10,660 bases of DNA, taken from IMG/VR virus record IMGVR_UViG_2695420540_000012; one strand, written 5' to 3'. Below are positions 184-9,690 of the stretch, in pieces. The notes under the pieces are model-generated. The model had not been told where the DNA came from. It was given only the letters and a program-made list of their open reading frames with translations, and did not search any database. A program made the translations under genes and the position numbers. The DNA is from a virus (Duplodnaviria > Heunggongvirae > Uroviricota > Caudoviricetes). The first letter of the stretch is position 1, and the number at the start of each line of letters is the position of its first letter.

Positions 184-1266
184 TCATTTTCTCTGGCTGA
201 TCTTTACCGGATAACCATCCCGAAGATCAATTAAGTGCTCCGGTTCAGAAGCAAACCATGCATAAGATCCCCACGCCAATTCTGGTATTGCCTTTTTAAA
301 AGGCAGAGCACTTCTGTCCATAAATGCCGTAAGGAATGCAAGATTTTTCTCGCTGAACCCAGCGTCAATAGCCAAATGAGTGAGAGTAACTTTTCGTTCC
401 CTGTTTATAGGCCCATCTGTCGCAACTACTTCAGTGAAAACTACAAGCATGTCCGAACCCGTTCGGTCCTCTCCCAAATCAATCAAAATAATATCTGGAA
501 GTGCTTTTGAGGCATCAATATTCAGCCCCAATGCTTTTGCCAATACATCATCCTGAGCAACAACTTTATTCCCGGATTCAGACAACCAGAGCACAGTTGG
601 ATTCTTAAGAAAATTAGGAGCAAAAACTTCGATGACGGCCTTAGCTATTGTACTTGACGGGCCCGGAGCTAAAGTTCTCTTCTCTCCATTTGGGAAAGTG
701 ACGACTACGGCATCAGCAGCAATCACTGCCCCTGATTTCAATAAACGCAACCTAGCAAGAGCGGCTTTGTTCAAATGATTTTCTTGCCAGGAACTTATTG
801 CACTCAGCAGCGAATCTCCTTCAAGCCCGGCATCAAAGAGTGCTGCAAAAGAGCGATTCAAACTGTAACGAGGACGAGAGGATGTGGTGGGTATACCTTT
901 ACGCTCAACAATTGCATTGCAAGGTATTAGGCCATTTTTTATAGTTTCATCACGTATTGGCTCACGCGTATTTTCCGCATACCATGCATCAGCAGGCCTT
1001 ATCTTTTGTTTAGAGAAAGTCATCTTTACCCAGCTTTCTCTGGACGCATCATCAGTAAGAGCAGCCTGCGAATCTCCCATACTTACAACCTGGCTGGGCC
1101 TTATCCATCGCCCCAGCCCCTCAACCGCACCAGCATAAAACATGACAAAAATTGTTTTTGCAGCTATTTCCCGAATTAAATATCCACGATTCTCAGTCCC
1201 TTCAGGGAAAATTAATTGTAATCTTTCCCGGATAACATTCAATGGGGGAACAACAGGCAGATTCAT
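184..1266 (-). CDS. Putative Type II restriction endonuclease (360 aa), partner of the upstream methyltransferase; possibly BsuBI/PstI-like
   Basis: Its ATG overlaps the methyltransferase stop in an ATGA overlap at 1263-1266, the classic coupled M then R arrangement. Contains a PD...EVV segment (ALPDIILIDLG...MLVVFTEVVATDG) reminiscent of a PD-(D/E)xK core, but the canonical lysine is not where expected. Family assignment is recollection, not a search. Confidence 0.5.
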   Translation of the reverse strand: MNLPVVPPLNVIRERLQLIFPEGTENRGYLIREIAAKTIFVMFYAGAVEGLGRWIRPSQVVSMGDSQAALTDDASRESWVKMTFSKQKIRPADAWYAENTREPIRDETIKNGLIPCNAIVERKGIPTTSSRPRYSLNRSFAALFDAGLEGDSLLSAISSWQENHLNKAALARLRLLKSGAVIAADAVVVTFPNGEKRTLAPGPSSTIAKAVIEVFAPNFLKNPTVLWLSESGNKVVAQDDVLAKALGLNIDASKALPDIILIDLGEDRTGSDMLVVFTEVVATDGPINRERKVTLTHLAIDAGFSEKNLAFLTAFMDRSALPFKKAIPELAWGSYAWFASEPEHLIDLRDGYPVKISQRK

Positions 1267-3095
1267 GCAATCATCACTCCATAGAAACCAGCGATAGTTC
1301 TCTCAATAATCCGTCTGTGGACGCCAGCATCAATTAACGATTGAATCTCCATCACCTGCTCCAGAGAAGGCAACGGGATTGAATTCAATTCATAGGCCGA
1401 AACAGCAACACTTCCGCTTATACACCTGAACGCCCGATCGACAACATGCGAATTAAGTAGCATATCAATAACATCAGGGCGAACCGCAGAGAACAATCCG
1501 TTTGAATATACAATATTAATATGGTTTTCAACTACTACGCCACCAGTTTCATCTATAAATCCCTGAGGTAAAATTGCCGCTAAAATCCTTCTGTCCTGTT
1601 CCTTCGATGTTGTCCGCTGAACAAGCACACATTCAGATTTTGTCACAAGGAAACCCTGTTGTGGGGTTATATCGATATAGGGAACATGATTTTTTCTGTC
1701 TGCACTAAAACGAAAACCAGCTGAAGTTATTGATTCCGCCCAGACTAATGGGTAGCTATTTTTTCCTTTCGTCGTACGCAACTGCGACTTAAATCGATTC
1801 CAGACTAACTGACCTGTAGAGACTGAGTATCCCAGATCAGCTAAACGCGTAGACATCTGTTTTAATACATTAAGAAAACAGGCATCATCTTTAACGCGTG
1901 GCAAAAGCCACGTTGCTCCACCTTTTTCTATATCAACATTACCTATTTTCTCAATTTTTGCTTTGTTCAACCCCTTAGGGACAAGTGAGGATACCTGGGC
2001 CCGAACTTTATGTTCTCCCGCCTTGAATGCTGTCAACATTGTTTCCTGGAGAACATCGTCAAAGACCCCATCCCTGTCAGTGACGAAATCAAGGGCATAC
2101 GGAGTAGTTTTTTCGGTCAAAAGGGTTCGCAGCGCGGTGAAATACTGCCCACCAAGAAAAGAAGTTGGCGTAAGAAATGCAATAACTCCTGTTTTCTCTT
2201 TAACCATGCGAACAGCTAAGTCGGTGAACAATCCATATAGATTTGCATGACCAAATAACGAACGAGAATATTTTTCTCTCGTTTTAATATCGAGAGTGAC
2301 ACGTCCGTAAGGCGGATTCCCTACCACAAGATCATAACCAGAAAATTTATCTTGCTGAAGCGCATCAGCAACAATAATTGTATCTTCAGGCAATCTACGT
2401 TTTACCTTTACACATAGTGGCATTAGTACAGATTCGAGCAATACCAAACTCATCCAAGCCGCAAATGGATCGATTTCTATCCCCTTTAAACGACGACTGA
2501 TTCTCCTCAACATCCATTCAGGGGAAGACCCCTTGTCTTTTTTTAACATTCGAATGGCTACTGGTGCCAAAAATGCACCGCCACCACACGCAGGATCAAT
2601 AACCGATGCATGAGAAAAATCAACACCAGACTTTTCAGCCAGGTCCAAGAGACGCGCTACCAAAGGTGGGGGGGTATAGTAAGCCCCCAATTCCGAACGG
2701 TAAGCGGATGGCAGCATTACCGTATAAATTGACCCAATCAGATATCCAGCGTCCTCCGCCGGAAATTGAGCAATAAGCTCACCTGTTCGTTCAGCGAGCT
2801 CGCGTGCATCACATGGAATGTCTTCTATGTAAACAGTGTGCGGTACTGCCCTCATTTTAATGCTGCTTTTTTGCTTTTTTGCAAGGGTATCCCAATATGC
2901 AGCTACGATGCTGAAGCAGTATGAGCGGGCATGCATCAACCTTGACTGCCCGGTTTTGTAATTGCCCGCATAACCTTTGGCCATGGCTTTACAAGTTTGA
3001 TATCTTTCCAGATTAGAAAACTCATTATCTGTAAAAAAATCAAAATGTTGCACATTCATAATGTAAAATCCTAATGTATCAAACATGCGGGCCAT
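1263..3095 (-). CDS. N6-adenine DNA methyltransferase, gamma-class, Eco57I/N6_Mtase-like (610 aa)
   Basis: Motif X-like GAYYTPPPLV, motif I VIDPACGGGAFL, motif IV VVGNPPYG in gamma-class order, followed by about 340 aa of probable target-recognition domain. Start is ambiguous: ATG at 3095 has no Shine-Dalgarno, and in-frame ATGs lie at about 3083 and 3059. Confidence 0.85.
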   Translation of the reverse strand: MARMFDTLGFYIMNVQHFDFFTDNEFSNLERYQTCKAMAKGYAGNYKTGQSRLMHARSYCFSIVAAYWDTLAKKQKSSIKMRAVPHTVYIEDIPCDARELAERTGELIAQFPAEDAGYLIGSIYTVMLPSAYRSELGAYYTPPPLVARLLDLAEKSGVDFSHASVIDPACGGGAFLAPVAIRMLKKDKGSSPEWMLRRISRRLKGIEIDPFAAWMSLVLLESVLMPLCVKVKRRLPEDTIIVADALQQDKFSGYDLVVGNPPYGRVTLDIKTREKYSRSLFGHANLYGLFTDLAVRMVKEKTGVIAFLTPTSFLGGQYFTALRTLLTEKTTPYALDFVTDRDGVFDDVLQETMLTAFKAGEHKVRAQVSSLVPKGLNKAKIEKIGNVDIEKGGATWLLPRVKDDACFLNVLKQMSTRLADLGYSVSTGQLVWNRFKSQLRTTKGKNSYPLVWAESITSAGFRFSADRKNHVPYIDITPQQGFLVTKSECVLVQRTTSKEQDRRILAAILPQGFIDETGGVVVENHINIVYSNGLFSAVRPDVIDMLLNSHVVDRAFRCISGSVAVSAYELNSIPLPSLEQVMEIQSLIDAGVHRRIIERTIAGFYGVMIA

Positions 3096-3154
3096 AACAT
3101 CTCATGGTGGCGCATAGCAAACTGGCCCGAAGAATATCACGCACCAAGTCGATC

Positions 3155-3170
3155 TCATAACCCGTTATGA
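3155..3170. promoter_or_regulatory. Perfect 7-2-7 palindrome TCATAAC-CC-GTTATGA in the methyltransferase upstream region; candidate operator
   Basis: Exact inverted repeat about 60 bp upstream of the methyltransferase start. A 2-nt spacer is too tight for an RNA hairpin, so a dimeric protein binding site is more likely. Confidence 0.3.
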
Positions 3171-3309
3171 CAATAAATCTTTGTAGCTGAACTCACTTGG
3201 TGATTTGTCAATCATTCCTGGCCTCCAGTTCGTCCTGAATCTCTTTATCGAGTTCACCGTATTTGTTAGTCCTCATCACTCACGACTTGACTTCCAGAAA
3301 TAACCTTGA

Positions 3310-3666
3310 TTATTCGGGGCTATATTTTGTCACCCTGCGTATCCGCGCTTTCGCATTACGCTCAATCTGGATTAGCTTTTCTATATTTTTTCGCCTTTCC
3401 CGCTCCTCCTGGCGCAAGAGCCTTACATCATCTGCCAGTCTGGTTTCTCTTTTCGCCACAGAGAGCATCCAGTCAAATGGCTCCACAACTGCACCGCAAA
3501 TTTTACAGCGGACCTGACGCTCTTTTTCGTCAACCCGGACAGAAGCGTGATGGCAATATGGTCTTTCCGATGGCTCATAAAGAAAATTAACCTGATTACG
3601 AGGGTTATCCTCTTTTACCGGAAATAAAACAATATTGCTTAACTCATCTTCTGGTTTTATTTCCAT
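3310..3666 (-). CDS. Hypothetical small zinc-ribbon protein with basic coiled-coil-like C-terminus (118 aa)
   Basis: Strong Shine-Dalgarno (AAGGAGAGGAGC) directly upstream of the ATG at 3664-3666. Cys/His cluster C-HH...C-x2-C, then an Arg/Glu-rich tail (RLLRQEERERRKNIEKLIQIERNAKARIRR). No family recognised. Confidence 0.6.
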   Translation of the reverse strand: MEIKPEDELSNIVLFPVKEDNPRNQVNFLYEPSERPYCHHASVRVDEKERQVRCKICGAVVEPFDWMLSVAKRETRLADDVRLLRQEERERRKNIEKLIQIERNAKARIRRVTKYSPE

Positions 3667-3723
3667 GCTCCTCTCCTTTGATGCGAATGCCAGCGGTAAT
3701 TGAAGCCTGATAGCTAATTTCAC

Positions 3724-3766
3724 TCACAGTACCGCCTCCTGAAAATCACCCTGATAGAAACAGAAG
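3724..3766 (-). pseudogene. 3' remnant of a paralogue of the hypothetical gene at 4616-5146, cut off by Ns and IS1
   Basis: Minus-strand reading gives ...FYQGDFQEAVL then stop, matching the C-terminus ...AFYQGNFQKVLL of the 4616-5146 gene. Nucleotide similarity continues through the downstream intergenic region (3661-3760 versus 4575-4653). Confidence 0.45.
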
Positions 3767-3790
3767 NNNNNNNNNGGTAATGACTCCAAC

Positions 3791-4294
3791 TTATTGATAG
3801 TGTTTTATGTTCAGATAATGCCCGATGACTTTGTCATGCAGCTCCACCGATTTTGAGAACGACAGCGACTTCCGTCCCAGCCGTGCCAGGTGCTGCCTCA
3901 GATTCAGGTTATGCCGCTCAATTCGCTGCGTATATCGCTTGCTGATTACGTGCAGCTTTCCCTTCAGGCGGGATTCATACAGCGGCCAGCCATCCGTCAT
4001 CCATATCACCACGTCAAAGGGTGACAGCAGGCTCATAAGACGCCCCAGCGTCGCCATAGTGCGTTCACCGAATACGTGCGCAACAACCGTCTTCCGGAGA
4101 CTGTCATACGCGTAAAACAGCCAGCGCTGGCGCGATTTAGCCCCGACATAGCCCCACTGTTCGTCCATTTCCGCGCAGACGATGACGTCACTGCCCGGCT
4201 GTATGCGCGAGGTTACCGACTGCGGCCTGAGTTTTTTAAGTGACGTAAAATCGTGTTGAGGCCAACGCCCATAATGCGTGCAGTTGCCCGGCAT
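3791..4294 (-). CDS. insB: IS1 InsB frame (expressed as InsAB' transposase by -1 frameshift)
   Basis: 167-aa frame (...[42 protein letters not shown]...) overlapping the insA 3' end at the A6C site. Confidence 0.9.
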
Positions 4295-4488
4295 CCAACG
4301 CCATTCATGGCCATATCAATGATTTTCTGGTGCGTACCGGGTTGAGAAGCGGTGTAAGTGAACTGCAGTTGCCATGTTTTACGGCAGTGAGAGCAGAGAT
4401 AGCGCTGATGTCCGGCAGTGCTTTTGCCGTTACGCACCACCCCGTCAGTAGCTGAACAGGAGGGACAGCTGATAGAAACAGAAGCCAC
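4213..4488 (-). CDS. insA: IS1 InsA (transposition inhibitor, N-terminal part of the InsAB' transposase)
   Basis: 91 aa beginning [24 protein letters not shown], the canonical InsA zinc-finger/HTH protein, with a GTG start. Confidence 0.95.
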
Positions 4489-4615: not shown

Positions 4616-5146
4616 TCACAACAGCACCTTCTGAAAATTACCCTGATAGAAAGCCAGTACACGCTGCATAGCTTCGCTCTTCCGGCACTCGCTACAGATT
4701 ATGTTTTGACGCCTGTCGTAGCGGCGTATTTCTCCGTCTGGTAATGACCAGATAAGGTCCGGATCAACCACAGATGGTTTCTTCAGCTTTGCCCTCGAGA
4801 GTTTTTTGCGGGCGTTTTGCCAGTCCTTACGAGCCTGTTCAGACGGGAATAACCCGTANNNNNNNNNNNNNNNNNNNNNNNNNNNNNNNNNNNNNNNNNN
4901 NNNNNNNNNNNNNNNNNNNNNNNNNNNNNNNNNNNNNNNNNNNNNNNNNNNNNNNNNNNNNNNNNNNCCAGAGTTGTATACATCGCCACTGGCAACCAGC
5001 TCTCTGGCGAGAACACTCATCAGATATCTTGTCGCACCTGTCTTGGCTTCCAGTTGCCGCAACGTCTCGCGACCGCTCAGACGTACAAGTTCAACAACCT
5101 GCCCCTTAATTTTTTCCCGCTCTTCCTGTGTAAATACTTTTGCCAT
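4616..5146 (-). CDS. Hypothetical prophage protein, middle masked by Ns (4859-4967)
   Basis: Frame is maintained across the N run. N-terminus MAKVFTQEEREKIKGQVVELVRLSGRETLRQLEAKTGATRYLMSVLARELV is helix-turn-helix-like; C-terminus contains CSECRKSE. Starts 15 nt after the stop of the upstream gene. Confidence 0.5.
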   Translation of the reverse strand: MAKVFTQEEREKIKGQVVELVRLSGRETLRQLEAKTGATRYLMSVLARELVASGDVYNSXXXXXXXXXXXXXXXXXXXXXXXXXXXXXXXXXXXXXYGLFPSEQARKDWQNARKKLSRAKLKKPSVVDPDLIWSLPDGEIRRYDRRQNIICSECRKSEAMQRVLAFYQGNFQKVLL

Positions 5147-5908: not shown

Positions 5909-6300
5909 TTACTTCACAACTCCCGGAAAGCTGACATTTGAACGCCAGCTATCCCAGTTAAACGTCACCCACCGACAACCGTTCATGGTCATGCGGTCCA
6001 TAATCCTCTCACCAAGAAGCGTGCTCATTGCGGCATGATTCAGGTTTGTTAACATCCCGACACTGCACAGTGATGCTGTCCGGCGATCAATTATCTGGTG
6101 CAATACCACCTGCTCGTTTTTCGTCTCCCGCTGAATGCCTATTTCATCCAGGACCAGCAAATCAACCCCGCAAAGCTCCTGTAAAAATTTTTCACCGGAT
6201 TTGCCGTTGTCGTAGCTGTCATGCAACACGCTCATGACATCAGACTCGGTGACGATAATCACGCTGCGCCCCTTCGCCATCAGCCGGTTACCCATCGCCG
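5909..6300 (-). CDS. DnaC-like helicase loader (IstB-like AAA+), C-terminal part only; N-terminal part hidden in Ns
   Basis: KGRSVIIVTESDVMS...LLVLDEIGIQRETKNEQVVLHQIIDRRTASLCSVGMLTNLNHAAMSTLLGERIMDRMTMNGCRWVTFNWDSWRS aligns closely with the E. coli DnaC / Rac YdaV C-terminal half as remembered, including Walker B (DEIG). Walker A would lie in the masked region. Confidence 0.85.
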
Positions 6301-6777
6301 NNNNNNNNNNNNNNNNNNNNNNNNNNNNNNNNNNNNNNNNNNNNNNNNNNNNNNNNNNNNNNNNNNNNNNNNNNNNNNNNNNNNNNNNNNNNNNNNNNNN
6401 NNNNNNNNNNNNNNNNNNNNNNNNNNNNNNNNNNNNNNNNNNNNNNNNNNNNNNNNNNNNNNNNNNNNNNNNNNNNNNNNNNNNNNNNNNNNNNNNNNNN
6501 NNNNNNNNNNNNNNNNNNNNNNNNNNNNNNNNNNNNNNNNNNNNNNNNNNNNNNNNNNNNNNNNNNNNNNNNNNNNNNNNNNNNNNNNNNNNNNNNNNNN
6601 NNNNNNNNNNNNNNNNNNNNNNNNNNNNNNNNNNNNNNNNNNNTCCACCGNNNNNNNNNNNNNNNNNNNNNNNNNNNNNNNNNNNNNNNNNNNNNNNNNN
6701 NNNNNNNNNNNNNNNNNNNNNNNNNNNNNNNNNNNNNNNNNNNNNNNNNNNNNNNNNNNNNNNNNNNNNNNNNNNNN

Positions 6778-7817
6778 TCGGTATCCGGTTCAGAAATATG
6801 ATTCACACAACGCTGGTTGTTCGTGCCGCTTACCGGGAGCAACCAGGGGTTTTCAAAATTCCGGTCCGGCCCAAAAAACGTCGTCGCTCGCTGAACAAAT
6901 TCCGTTCCCGCTTTCCCGGTCGCCGCCAGGTATCTCGCGTAACGCCTCACACCATCCAGCATGGTCTCTGGTGGCACCCCCTCGCGCAATCTGGCCTTCC
7001 AGGCACTGAATGCGGATTTCTTCGGGTTTGCCCCGGCACGCAACGGGTATTCCCGCCAGACCTGTTCGAACACATCCGGATAATCCACTCGTCCCACAGG
7101 CTGCCCGGTGTTTTCCGGGGCTACCCGATCGGCTTCCCGCTGAATGGCGGAATCGGCTTCAGGCTGCTGCAGTTGGAGTGATTGCTCCGGCCTTGCGGTC
7201 ATCACCTGCTGCACAGCGCCCGAATCGGCTTTCAGCGCATACGCTGAATCGGCTTCCGGTGTCGAGCCTGCTGGCTGACCAGGATTGACGGTCTGAACAT
7301 CCCCTGCCTGGTTCGTGGCGTTTTTTACGCCATGGACCATAGTGTTTTGATCTTCTTTATCTGTATCTTTATCTGTATCTGTCGTGACTCGTCGTGACAT
7401 GTGCGTGACATTTCGTGACGCGCCGTGACAATCGCCATTTTGTTCCCGCTTTCTTTCCCTCTCTCGCTGCGCCCTCTTGCGCTCTGCAGGAGATTTTGCG
7501 GTTTGCGAAATATTGCCGTTGTCCTCTTTAAGCACCTGGCGTTTTTCCCATCCAGTGATTAAATCACCATCAAGTACCCGCCCCTGCATCGTCTGCAAAA
7601 TTGAATCAATTACCTCTTCTGTCACGTCGAGCGCACTTGCCAAATCTTCTGTCGTGACATCAATGTGACCTCGCGTGACATTTCGTGACGCGCTCACCAG
7701 GAGGTGGATATACACTGCCATCACTGTTGCAATTGGCTGCCCTGACACCCTGGCAATTGTTCGCCACTTAGGGTCATTTGGCATGTCATGCCATAATCTG
7801 AGCCAGGCGTTAGCCAT
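6778..7817 (-). CDS. Putative phage replication initiator / replisome organiser (O-like), 3' end hidden in Ns
   Basis: Shine-Dalgarno GAGGTGA 4 nt upstream of the ATG at 7815-7817. Lies directly upstream of the DnaC-like gene and contains two iteron clusters, as lambda O contains ori. The six-frame track runs this frame through the N block to 6288, but the true stop is not visible. Confidence 0.6.
7356..7379. repeat. Tandem 12-bp direct repeat (tttatctgtatc x2) next to iteron cluster A
   Basis: Exact tandem duplication at 7356-7367 and 7368-7379, followed immediately by the first CGTGAC iteron. Confidence 0.7.
7383..7429. repeat. Iteron cluster A: five CGTGAC copies at 10-11 bp phasing (candidate ori)
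   Basis: CGTGAC at 7383, 7393, 7404, 7414 and 7424. Includes the first copy of a 21-bp exact direct repeat GCGTGACATTTCGTGACGCGC (7403-7423). Confidence 0.65.
7653..7693. repeat. Iteron cluster B: four (C/T)GTGAC copies at 10-11 bp phasing (candidate ori)
   Basis: CGTGAC/TGTGAC at 7653, 7664, 7674 and 7684, plus an inverted GTCACG at 7621. Includes the second copy of the 21-bp repeat (7673-7693). Confidence 0.65.
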
Positions 7818-7888
7818 ACTCACCTCTTCTGATACCGAATCTTTTTACTCACGAGTTGCCGGGAGCGATTCGATATGGCTATTGTCAG

Positions 7889-8314
7889 TCAATGTACTGC
7901 CACAGCATTTCCTGCCGGGCCACCACGGTTCATCTGATTGAAACCGGCGATTGCCACTGCGACAAAATCATCAGCGTCTCTCACCAGTCGTTCATGCGTC
8001 TCCACCAGTTCCCGAAAATAAGCTGAACTGTGGCTGCGCATTCGAGCCACCAGCGGAGGTGGCATTGCCCTTTCGATCGCAGGTAACAACGCCTGAATTT
8101 TTTCAACAGCGTCAGGGGTGTCTTTATCCAGCCAACGGAAAATCTTTTGGGTGTTGAGATAAAGCGTGTTGTGCTTGCTGTCGTTATGCAGAACCGGAAA
8201 CGTCATTCCCAGTTCGAAATAAACCCTGGTTATTTCAGCTGCCGGAACTTTTTCACCGTCCGGATGCGCCCAGGCTTTCATCGCCATGCGGATGTGTTCA
8301 TGCTTGATTTTCAT
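7889..8314 (-). CDS. CII-like / YdaT-family prophage regulator (141 aa)
   Basis: N-terminus MKIKHEHI matches what I recall of Rac YdaT. Its ATG overlaps the stop of the upstream Cro-like gene in an ATGA overlap at 8311-8314, and it sits between the Cro-like and initiator genes as in Rac (ydaS-ydaT-ydaU-ydaV). Confidence 0.55.
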   Translation of the reverse strand: MKIKHEHIRMAMKAWAHPDGEKVPAAEITRVYFELGMTFPVLHNDSKHNTLYLNTQKIFRWLDKDTPDAVEKIQALLPAIERAMPPPLVARMRSHSSAYFRELVETHERLVRDADDFVAVAIAGFNQMNRGGPAGNAVAVH

Positions 8315-8574
8315 GAATCAACCCCCGCCGATGGTTGTGTGTTAGCCTGAAACTCAGCAGGCAAGCCGTCAGTTGGGTTGGGGTAGGTTTTACTGTCAAT
8401 CTCATGTGGGGTCACCACCCATCCCGTTGCTTCACACCAACGTAATATTTTTTCTCCTGTAAGTTTTGCACGCCCCGTTATAACGTGGCTGACCATCCCT
8501 TGGGATGCGCCAACAATCTCAGCAAATGAACTCTGGGTTATATGAAAATGATGCAAATATTCTCCAAGATTCAT
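8311..8574 (-). CDS. Cro-like HTH regulator (YdaS/Cro family), 87 aa from the ATG at 8572-8574
   Basis: Helix-turn-helix ITQSSFAEIVGASQGMVSHVITGRAKLTGEKI. Transcribed divergently from the repressor across the operator region. The track's longer ORF begins at a TTG (8601); the ATG has a GGGCGG purine patch upstream. Confidence 0.7.
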   Translation of the reverse strand: MNLGEYLHHFHITQSSFAEIVGASQGMVSHVITGRAKLTGEKILRWCEATGWVVTPHEIDSKTYPNPTDGLPAEFQANTQPSAGVDS

Positions 8575-8610
8575 AATCCGCCCTATGTGATGTGTTACCA
8601 ATGCATAATT

Positions 8611-8650: not shown

Positions 8651-8685
8651 TCAAAGTGATTAGCAATCTTATTAGAATTGGATGT

Positions 8686-9186
8686 ATGAAAAGAAAATCA
8701 TTGTCAGACACCGACCTCAACGCCGCCAGAAGACTGAAAGAAATCTGGATGGCAAAGAAATCTCAGTTGGGATTGACTCAGGAACGTGCGGCGGAAATTA
8801 TGGGGTTTTCAACACAAGGGGCGGTAAGTCACTACCTAAATGGTCAAACCCCACTAAACCTTGAGGCTGTTCTAAAGTTTGCTGGCTTACTGAAAGTTCC
8901 CCCTGAGTCAATCAGGCCAGACATGGTAGATTTGCTGCAAATTGCAAGGATGTATTGTCGAGAACCACAGCAAGATAACATAGTCGCATTACCAGCAGAC
9001 ACAGAACAAACAGAGGATGAACTACCGTTTGCCGTAGAGCCGATGGAACGAGATTTAATCCATACGTTCAGAGCTTTTCCGAAAGAAGATCAAGAACACA
9101 TGCTTCAGGAGATGAAAGATAAAAAAGAATCAATGGATCGTACGGTTGCGCGGTGGTTAGCTGCACAAAAAGGCCGTCGCGCCTAA
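8686..9186 (+). CDS. Prophage repressor, XRE/CI-type HTH (RacR/CI analogue); start could instead be GTG at 8656
   Basis: Helix-turn-helix LGLTQERAAEIMGFSTQGAVSHYLNGQ. Sits divergent to the Cro-like gene. No LexA/S24-type G-x-S-M ... K peptidase motif is visible in the C-terminal half. Confidence 0.7.
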   Translation: MKRKSLSDTDLNAARRLKEIWMAKKSQLGLTQERAAEIMGFSTQGAVSHYLNGQTPLNLEAVLKFAGLLKVPPESIRPDMVDLLQIARMYCREPQQDNIVALPADTEQTEDELPFAVEPMERDLIHTFRAFPKEDQEHMLQEMKDKKESMDRTVARWLAAQKGRRA

Positions 9187-9205: not shown

Positions 9206-9400
9206 ATGAGTACAGTCCTTTCCCCAATGGTTTCAGAATTTGAGACAGTTGAGCAAGAAAATAGTTACAACGAATGGCTGCGGGCCAAAGTAGCAGCAAG
9301 CCTCGCGGATCCCCGCCCGGCGATTCCGCATGATGAGGTAATGGCGGAAATGGAACAAATTATTGCCCAAATTGCTGCTGCAACTCACAGAGGTGAATAA
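9206..9400 (+). CDS. Putative type II antitoxin (ParD-type partner of the ParE/RelE toxin), 64 aa
   Basis: Shine-Dalgarno GAGGAG 9 nt upstream. Small acidic protein whose TAA stop overlaps the toxin ATG (TAATG at 9398-9402). Family assignment is by context and general resemblance only. Confidence 0.55.
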   Translation: MSTVLSPMVSEFETVEQENSYNEWLRAKVAASLADPRPAIPHDEVMAEMEQIIAQIAAATHRGE

Positions 9401-9690
9401 TGTTACCCGTTTTATGGCTACCATCTGCTCGTGATGATTTGCGCCAGATCGTAGCCTACATAGCTAAAGAAAATCCCGCGGCAGCACGCAGAATGAAAAT
9501 TCGAATTGAAACATCCGTTTTGCCGCTCACAGAGCATCCTTACCTGTATCCTCCAAGCGAGCGAGTTCTTGGTCTTCGTGAAATTGTAACTCATCCTAAC
9601 TACATCATCCTTTACCGAGTAACAGCATCAAGCATAGAAGTAGTAAATATTGTGCATTCTCGAAGACAGTATCCAGGCAAAAACAGTTAA
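9400..9690 (+). CDS. ParE/RelE-family type II toxin (96 aa)
   Basis: Family-typical pattern: N-terminal DDLRQIVAYIAKENPAAARRM and C-terminal LREIVTHPNYIILYRVTASSIEVVNIVHSRRQY. Translationally coupled to the upstream antitoxin. Confidence 0.75.
   Translation: MLPVLWLPSARDDLRQIVAYIAKENPAAARRMKIRIETSVLPLTEHPYLYPPSERVLGLREIVTHPNYIILYRVTASSIEVVNIVHSRRQYPGKNS

Follow-up and report, generated by a model that had tools for sequence, protein, structure and literature searches.

A predicted replication origin inside the initiator gene of an Escherichia coli lambdoid prophage, built from two helically phased iteron arrays and an AT-rich tract

The replication initiator gene of an Escherichia coli lambdoid prophage carries, within its own coding sequence, two arrays of a short direct repeat together with an AT-rich tract, and we consider it very likely that this region is the replication origin of the prophage. 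The gene lies on the minus strand of the window analysed here, which is the whole 10,660-nucleotide stretch of IMG/VR record IMGVR_UViG_2695420540_000012. Comparison with related loci establishes that the arrays and the tract exist, that selection on them acts at the level of DNA, that the repeat motif changes jointly in both arrays, and that these elements travel with the N-terminal domain of the initiator. The genomic context points the same way, because the initiator is encoded within a replication module, between repressor/cro/cII-like genes and a DnaC-like helicase loader. An origin inside the initiator gene had been predicted from the bases of the window alone, and every sequence-level expectation of that proposal that could be tested holds (gene identity, DNA-level selection and AT tract); what it had not recorded is that the gene is on the minus strand, with its 3' end in a masked run of Ns.

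The repeat reads GTCACG on the gene strand and CGTGAC on the plus strand. In array B five sites share one orientation, with CGTGAC starting at positions 7383, 7393, 7404, 7414 and 7424 (spacing 10, 11, 10 and 10 bp). Array A, separated from it by ~230 bp, holds four such sites, at 7653, 7674 and 7684 together with a one-mismatch TGTGAC at 7664 (spacing 11, 10 and 10 bp), and falls at the end of a helix and in the following loop of the N-terminal domain. Two clusters of CGTGAC at 10-11 bp spacing were part of the original prediction, and both have now been located exactly. The hexamer is absent elsewhere on either strand of the window: there are nine matches where 3.5 are expected, all within 310 bp (P ~7e-12 for uniformly placed sites), and five copies of one hexamer within 60 bp were found in 0 of 200 Markov-shuffled windows, where the maximum was 2-4. 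The two arrays also share an identical 21-mer, as predicted, starting at 7403 and 7673. The peptide ASRNVT is encoded twice (residues 43-48 and 133-138). The exactness of this longer match is lineage-specific, the array B copy in one relative (L001) being off by one base, and the alignments identify the hexamer, not the 21-mer, as the conserved unit.

A search with the N-terminal domain produced 727 database matches (Pseudomonas, Bordetella, Chromobacterium, Acidovorax, Serratia and others), and 51 loci were fetched from contigs representing one genome per species. Twenty-two of these loci, from other species and with 59-97% protein identity, carry GTCAC arrays, with a second array of 3-5 copies ~230 bp further on. 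The array A gene positions 129, 139, 149 and 160 are all occupied in 18 of the 22, while three loci have three sites and one has six. A comparison with the iterons of related phages, which had been suggested as a check, returned the same hexamer positions in most of these 22 loci, and other hexamers in distant clades as described below. The single inverted copy in the window is a possible extra site: GTGAC stands at the matching gene position 193 in 18 of the 22 loci (214 in L006, which has a 21-bp insertion), with a column conservation of 70-90% that makes weaker evidence than exists for the array sites.

Codon usage was then compared in 20 species whose local GC content, over the fetched loci of ~5 kb, ranges from 34 to 69%. 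Within array A the codons of V47 (GTC), T48 (ACG), G50 (GGT), H51 (CAC) and V54 (GTC) are the same in 100% of species, those of S44 (TCA) and T55 (ACG) in 95% and that of A43 (GCG) in 90%, whereas the top codon of other invariant residues with four- to sixfold degeneracy reaches 30-55%. The third position of the R49 codon, located between two iterons, varies freely (top codon 40%), and the bases flanking the 6-bp core are at most 66% conserved. Array B, of which relatives hold 3-5 copies, gives a complementary picture: its iterons occupy all three reading frames, and its peptide varies across relatives (CH, GH, RH or SH; SRNVT, SRDVT or SRKVT) while GTCAC stays constant. The residue before the histidine is C, R, G or S, exactly those with an NGT codon. 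Since codon choice is fixed within the hexamers yet variable at other invariant residues, and since all three frames are used, the comparison indicates that selection on the repeats acts on the DNA and not on the protein. The repeated SRNVT peptide is then a by-product of the DNA signal, which agrees with the earlier proposal that the repeats force this peptide on the protein.

The last iteron of array B is followed without a gap by (GATAAA)n or (GATACA)n in almost all relatives. In the window this tract reads (GATACAGATAAA)2 on the gene strand, and its 40 bp at 7338-7377 form the regional GC minimum (27.5%). The 12-bp AT-rich tandem repeat noticed earlier, TCTTTATCTGTA, was recovered by Tandem Repeats Finder at 7354-7380 (2.2 copies, 100% match, period 12). 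Across the 20 species the 36 nt that follow array B have a GC content of 14-36%, including Castellaniella (local GC 67%) and Pseudothauera (69%), and within them GAT outnumbers GAC by 66 to 2 and AAA outnumbers AAG by 59 to 10, against 200:228 and 145:155 in the rest of the genes. Some high-GC relatives have a purine-only GA repeat in place of the AT tract. We regard the tract as a candidate DNA-unwinding element. In the AlphaFold model, residues 131-157, the linker encoded by array B and the AT tract, have a predicted local distance difference test (pLDDT) score below 50, and the protein would tolerate both elements because they encode this predicted disordered linker, much as lambda O copes with the linker encoded by its own origin. 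In three relatives (L002, L003 and L006) two more iterons come with a 7-residue insertion in the protein.

Other potential origin elements were sought around the arrays. An imperfect inverted repeat with a 13-bp stem (TGGTTCGTGGCG...CGCCATGGACCA) directly borders the AT-rich tract at its end distal to the iterons; folded as DNA it gives z=-2.05 against shuffles, and relatives have hairpins of unrelated sequence at the equivalent site (mean z=-1.35, n=21; strongest in L023, z=-5.4). This hairpin may be part of the origin or a by-product of coding for a Pro-rich and then a Gly-rich motif. Within 7200-7900 we found no DnaA box (TTATNCACA) with one mismatch or fewer, no integration host factor (IHF) consensus and one GATC only. 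The pyrimidine tract at 7443-7485, singled out in the original prediction, is present (86% pyrimidine on the plus strand, tied top among the most strand-asymmetric 43-mers of the window), but it needs no origin-specific explanation: it encodes the basic helix AERKRAQRERERKRE between the arrays, and its composition follows from the Arg, Glu and Lys codons of that helix. No independent sign of a DNA-level role was found for this tract, and it was rejected as a separate origin element.

More distant relatives retain the layout, with both arrays built on a different hexamer. The motif is of the GTAACG(C) type in L032, L037, L043 and L044 and of the CGAACG(C) type in L033, L034, L036, L038, L039, L041, L042 and L050, and a 3' ACG is common to all hexamer types; a motif is seen in array B only in L054 (AACGCCA) and in L046 and L053 (CTACG). 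As arrays A and B share their motif within each clade, one sequence-specific binding protein is expected to serve both. The initiator is the only open reading frame common to all 18 loci of the GTCACG type within 2.5 kb on either side, the next best being present in 6 of 18. Moreover, two relatives (L002 and L003) keep the N-terminal domain and the arrays but have a DnaT-like C-terminal domain, with a lambda P-like gene replacing the DnaC-like one, and in L001, L004 and phage Tritos a loader gene is missing from this place. Because C-terminal domains and loaders vary while the arrays stay, the arrays go with the N-terminal domain and not with the loader system. That the initiator binds the arrays is inferred by analogy with known initiators and from the lack of another candidate.

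Within the N-terminal domain, the parts that differ by iteron type are the loop encoded by array A and the basic helix after residue 105 (ERKRxQRERE, ERAKxWRE or xRVxxYRE), the rest being near constant. This variation is confounded with phylogeny and is a lead only. One subgroup (L025, L027 and L029, from Pantoea, Enterobacter and Erwinia) mixes GTAACG and GTCACG within a single array (gene nt 120-245 and 395-500), with sites in both orientations and some overlapping at 5-bp steps, and its binding protein may tolerate GT(A/C)ACG. An attempt to draw specificity residues from this trio gave no clean conclusion, as hexamers and orientations are mixed. We also observed that the origin linker (boundary 7383-7340) is a mosaic joint, at which a shared N-terminal domain and arrays meet unrelated C-terminal domains and downstream partners.

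Throughout its visible part (residues 1-346) the initiator is matched by phrog_3729 ('replication initiation protein', E=1e-243), and RefSeq names it 'phage replisome organizer'. Its last ~27 nt fall within the masked run 6651-6777, and the end position was taken from relatives (L001, L004 and L056), whose initiators have 345-362 residues and end in ...SEPD(N/T)EIPPGFRG*. The protein is laid out as an N-terminal DNA-binding domain, a disordered linker and a predicted helicase-recruiting C-terminal domain. Matches to further 'replisome organizer' families are weak (phrog_4880, 2e-5; phrog_5968, 4e-4). The N-terminal domain aligns with positions 1-119 of the 121-position profile PF09681 (Phage_rep_org_N) at E=0.016 and 15.7 bits, below the gathering score of 23.3, and only 2 of 20 family members match this profile. 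PF04492 (Phage_rep_O) gave no match to the window protein, L001, L002 or 20 family members, even at E values up to 1. The AlphaFold model places helices at residues 3-14, 16-25, 29-45, 56-63 and 67-77, a hairpin at 78-87 and the basic helix at 110-126. A winged helix is the probable fold, although this assignment is tentative. A search of Protein Data Bank (PDB) sequences with the family profile returned nothing for the N-terminal domain and matched the DnaT-like C-terminal tail only.

Several further features of the protein were noted. The tail ...SEPD(N/T)EIPPGFRG is nearly identical to that of the E. coli primosomal protein DnaT (PDB 6aep, 2ru8); it is present even in the version whose C-terminal domain is otherwise not DnaT-like, and may serve as a short peptide on which a host replication protein docks. 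The C-terminal linker contains a 36-nt direct repeat (7128-7163 and 7224-7259, 75% identical, 96 bp apart) coding for PEADSA, and L004 has one more ADSAIQRE unit, so its copy number is variable. RefSeq annotation is inconsistent: some records (e.g. L056, 3663-4700) start the protein at Met12 (MPNDPKW...), the residues WLRLWHD upstream of Met12 are conserved in all species, and most records are labelled 'hypothetical protein'.

These observations lead us to propose a mechanism in which the initiator would bind the arrays, loop the DNA, unwind the tract and load the helicase. The N-terminal domain, through its probable winged helix and basic helix, would bind the hexamer GTCACG, and sites in the same orientation every 10-11 bp would align the bound initiators, five of them at array B and four at A, along the same helical face. 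The two coated arrays would probably associate, with the intervening DNA looped or wrapped, and the resulting strain would open the AT-rich tract that abuts array B. The C-terminal domain and the DnaC-like loader encoded downstream would then recruit host DnaB. Since some relatives have no visible array A, sequence comparison suggests that the core origin probably consists of array B and the AT tract, with array A in an auxiliary role.

Several observations weigh against this reading or weaken parts of it. Array A is not visible in L040, L054, L046 and L053, which makes looping the least secure step. Helical phasing between A and B is weak (Rayleigh test on 9 non-independent distances, p 0.008-0.13 according to the period chosen); the distinct A-to-B distances of 250, 258-262, 269-270, 278-281 and 350 bp hint at steps of ~10 bp, and we do not claim phasing. 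Because the arrays lie inside the initiator's own gene, their co-inheritance with the N-terminal domain is unavoidable and is no proof of the binder. The structure model is moderate (mean pLDDT 69), Foldseek against the PDB gives weak winged-helix matches only (MarR, CRP and ArsR; E >0.3), and the helix expected to be the recognition helix is acidic. The 20 species of the codon comparison are not phylogenetically independent. Finally, we found no paper on this initiator family or its iteron in the open-access literature, work on the replication modules of Stx phages included, so that an older description is possible, and tblastn against a phage collection gave 24 matching records, no classical model phage with the domain being among them.

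Other explanations for the arrays must be weighed against an origin. They could be binding sites of a regulatory protein, acting in autoregulation, 'handcuffing' copy control or titration exclusion, while replication starts elsewhere. DNA-level constraint by itself shows only some sequence-specific action at the arrays; the distance of 230 bp between array A and the AT-rich tract, and the absence of this array from some relatives, would fit an accessory element; and cloned lactococcal phage origins do act as titrating 'phage-encoded resistance' (PMC8965321). We nevertheless judge a regulatory role without an origin to be quite improbable. Array B is always joined to an AT- or purine-rich tract that is protected from GC pressure, which is the signature of an unwinding element and not of an operator, and no second array of at least 3 copies was found outside the initiator gene in the complete 46-kb genome of Tritos, a phage of this type. 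In addition, the arrays lie 130-430 nt into the coding sequence and not at a promoter, and a scan for internal promoters and terminators gave nothing above chance, one weak promoter-like match consisting of the iterons themselves. A related proposal is that the arrays are read by another protein, namely a host factor, a small terminase subunit acting at a packaging site, or a recombinase. Phased short intragenic repeats are known at some phage packaging sites, and the initiator has been assigned as binder indirectly. Such a reader is very unlikely, as no other open reading frame is conserved beside the arrays across the 18 loci, while the hexamer follows the initiator clade and is constant across beta- to gamma-proteobacterial hosts, which argues against a conserved host factor; a place in the replication module beside a helicase loader is also what an origin would have.

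The repeats and the Asp-Lys-coding tract might instead be kept as a recombination joint for exchanging the N- and C-terminal modules of the initiator. Similarity between the window and L002 or L003 does stop right past the repeat that encodes DK, and the loci differ beyond it in their C-terminal domains, only some of which are DnaT-like, and in their loaders, which are P-like, DnaC-like or absent. We give this only a slim chance: it leaves unexplained the strict identity of the hexamer, the 10-11 bp spacing, the second array in the N-terminal domain, and the use of one shared hexamer per clade that differs between clades. Module exchange located at the origin is found in lambda-type initiators too and is compatible with an origin. 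There remains selection on the SRNVT peptide itself, or chance, with the periodicity of the DNA being incidental. The residues ASRNVTRGH, H131, S134, R135 and V137 are invariant in the protein alignment, as this would require, but the fixed synonymous sites inside the hexamers are not matched in other invariant residues, three reading frames with different peptides are used, and the shuffles and the placement probability exclude chance. We therefore consider the likelihood of this explanation negligible.

Taken as an origin, the region has the layout of a kind already known from phage lambda, and it appears to be undescribed for this initiator family. In lambda, the iterons and an adjoining AT-rich tract are found midway along gene O and encode the linker between the origin-binding and helicase-recruiting domains. 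Iterons of the lambda type form one contiguous block of four to six imperfect inverted repeats, each 19 bp long, and the O gene is transcribed from the early rightward operon (PMC7466680). The Shiga toxin (Stx) phages 933W and P27 have this type of origin, and in Stx phages two extra iterons add 13 residues to O (PMC7466680). The arrangement described here resembles this in having repeats within the initiator gene, an AT-rich region abutting the iterons, an origin that codes for a linker, extra iterons that cost residues, and an initiator gene in the early rightward operon. The original prediction that it mirrors the lambda origin therefore stands for the layout but not for the components. The initiator is no homologue of O, the loader is DnaC-like where that of lambda is P, and the repeats are nine or ten direct copies with a 6-bp core, one helical turn apart, divided between two arrays, one of which is part of the DNA that codes for the DNA-binding domain itself.

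The replisome organizers of Gram-positive phages may be nearer relatives than lambda. The origin of SPP1 (G38P/oriL) lies in its organizer gene and contains direct repeats (PMC6316719), and the organizers ORF13 of TP901-1 and Rep2009 of Tuc2009 bind direct repeats in their own genes (PMC8965321). In these systems an AT-rich unwinding element stands beside the repeats and is followed by a helicase-loader gene (PMC6316719, PMC8965321). Direct repeats in the initiator's own gene, an AT-rich element, an adjacent loader (in the window and in L056) and the RefSeq name are shared with the family studied here, which differs in its subthreshold match to PF09681, in its proteobacterial hosts and in its C-terminal domains (DnaT-like and others). 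SPP1 also has a second origin elsewhere, whereas none was found in the Tritos genome. Two separated clusters of a short motif are also found in satellite phage P4, where octamers at ori and crr are read by the phage's own replication protein and one cluster is a required auxiliary site. The P4 clusters are separated by kilobases and neither is within the replication gene, and the alpha protein of P4 is a primase-helicase unrelated to this initiator; here both clusters are within the initiator gene.

The coordinates of these features and of the neighbouring genes are collected in Table 1. Positions 6778-7900 are 96-97.5% identical to seven Escherichia phages, including Tritos and Evi, and the part from 7300 to 7830 is present in 1817 of 5426 complete E. 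coli genomes (about one third). The minus strand carries, in order, the cro-like gene, the YdaT/cII-like gene, the initiator, the DnaC-like loader, and genes with DUF1627 and DUF977. The loader also matches the DnaC equivalog profile at positions 121-248 (E=1e-45), and in the unmasked relative L056 a 248-residue ATP-binding protein begins 6 nt past the initiator stop. The window contains four masked runs of Ns (3767-3775, 4859-4967, 6301-6643 and 6651-6777), which conceal where the initiator gene ends and some 120 codons at the start of the DnaC-like gene, and leave seven unmasked bases (6644-6650) between the last two runs. On the other side of the module, the divergent helix-turn-helix (HTH) regulator is followed by genes for a PaaA2-like antitoxin (9206-9400) and a ParE toxin (9400-9690); this three-gene toxin-antitoxin unit occupies the place of the lambdoid repressor, and the regulator may have both roles. 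Downstream of the replication module are a copy of the insertion sequence IS1 (InsA/InsB, 3791-4488) and a restriction-modification pair, comprising an N6-adenine methylase (1263-3095) and a BsuBI/PstI-type endonuclease (184-1266); the IS1 copy and this pair (184-4488) are cargo inserted into the prophage.

Table 1. Elements of the proposed origin and genes of the surrounding module (positions in the window).
Feature	Position	Strand	Remarks
Replication initiator gene, 'replisome organizer' type	6751..7817	-	ATG at 7817 (MANAWLRLWHDMPNDPKW...)
Iteron array A, four direct GTCACG-type sites	7653-7689	-	gene nt 129-165; codons 43-55
Iteron array B, five direct GTCACG sites	7383-7429	-	gene nt 389-435; codons 130-145 (disordered linker)
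Exact 21-mer GCGTGACATTTCGTGACGCGC	7403-7423 and 7673-7693	-	two iterons and spacer; copies 270 bp apart
Single inverted hexamer copy (possible extra site)	7621-7626	+	27 bp past array A, read along the gene
AT-rich tandem repeat, (GATACAGATAAA)2 on gene strand	7338-7382	-	codes TDTDKDTDKED; abuts last array B iteron
Purine-rich tract (gene strand; pyrimidine-rich on +)	7443-7485	-	codes basic helix AERKRAQRERERKRE between arrays
Imperfect 13-bp-stem inverted repeat TGGTTCGTGGCG...CGCCATGGACCA	7309-7339		flanks AT-rich tract, side away from iterons
DnaC-like helicase-loader gene	5909..6655	-	directly downstream of initiator; start inferred, 5' part masked; NF009043/PRK12377, E=3e-72
YdaT/cII-like gene	7889-8314	-	
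cro-like gene	8311-8601	-	
Divergent HTH regulator	8656-9186	+	repressor position

A further idea, which we hold to be rather unlikely, is that the binding site encodes part of its own reader, as array A spells the loop ASRNVTRGH-x-DVT of the DNA-binding domain. Should this loop touch the hexamer, the same nucleotides would serve as origin DNA and code for the peptide by which that DNA is recognised, forming a self-referential unit of origin and initiator. Any shift in origin specificity would then have to follow a single mutation path that meets both demands, and this would account for the constancy of the hexamer between beta- and gamma-proteobacteria. The second unusual feature, if true, would be a bipartite looped complex assembled on the DNA that codes for the initiator itself.

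Looking forward, the prediction names exact sites to mutate, and a small fragment (about 7330-7440, or 7300-7750 with both arrays) could be used for phage-derived replicons or for titration-based phage resistance. Specialists would find the layout itself unsurprising but might take an interest in the division of the array in two, in the very short core with its helical phasing, and in how deeply nucleotides are conserved inside a gene. Prophages of beta- and gamma-proteobacteria, as well as phages of Pseudomonas, Aeromonas and Ralstonia, carry relatives of the initiator, and its E. coli prophages include those of pathogenic strains. For this family the comparison offers a sequence rule for finding origins: a phased array of xxxACG hexamers, followed by (GATAAA)n. 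The region would also be a clean natural example of a DNA signal dictating protein sequence. The motifs SRNVTRGH and CH..SR.VT would be invariant through the origin and not through protein function, which calls for caution in reading conservation within the family.

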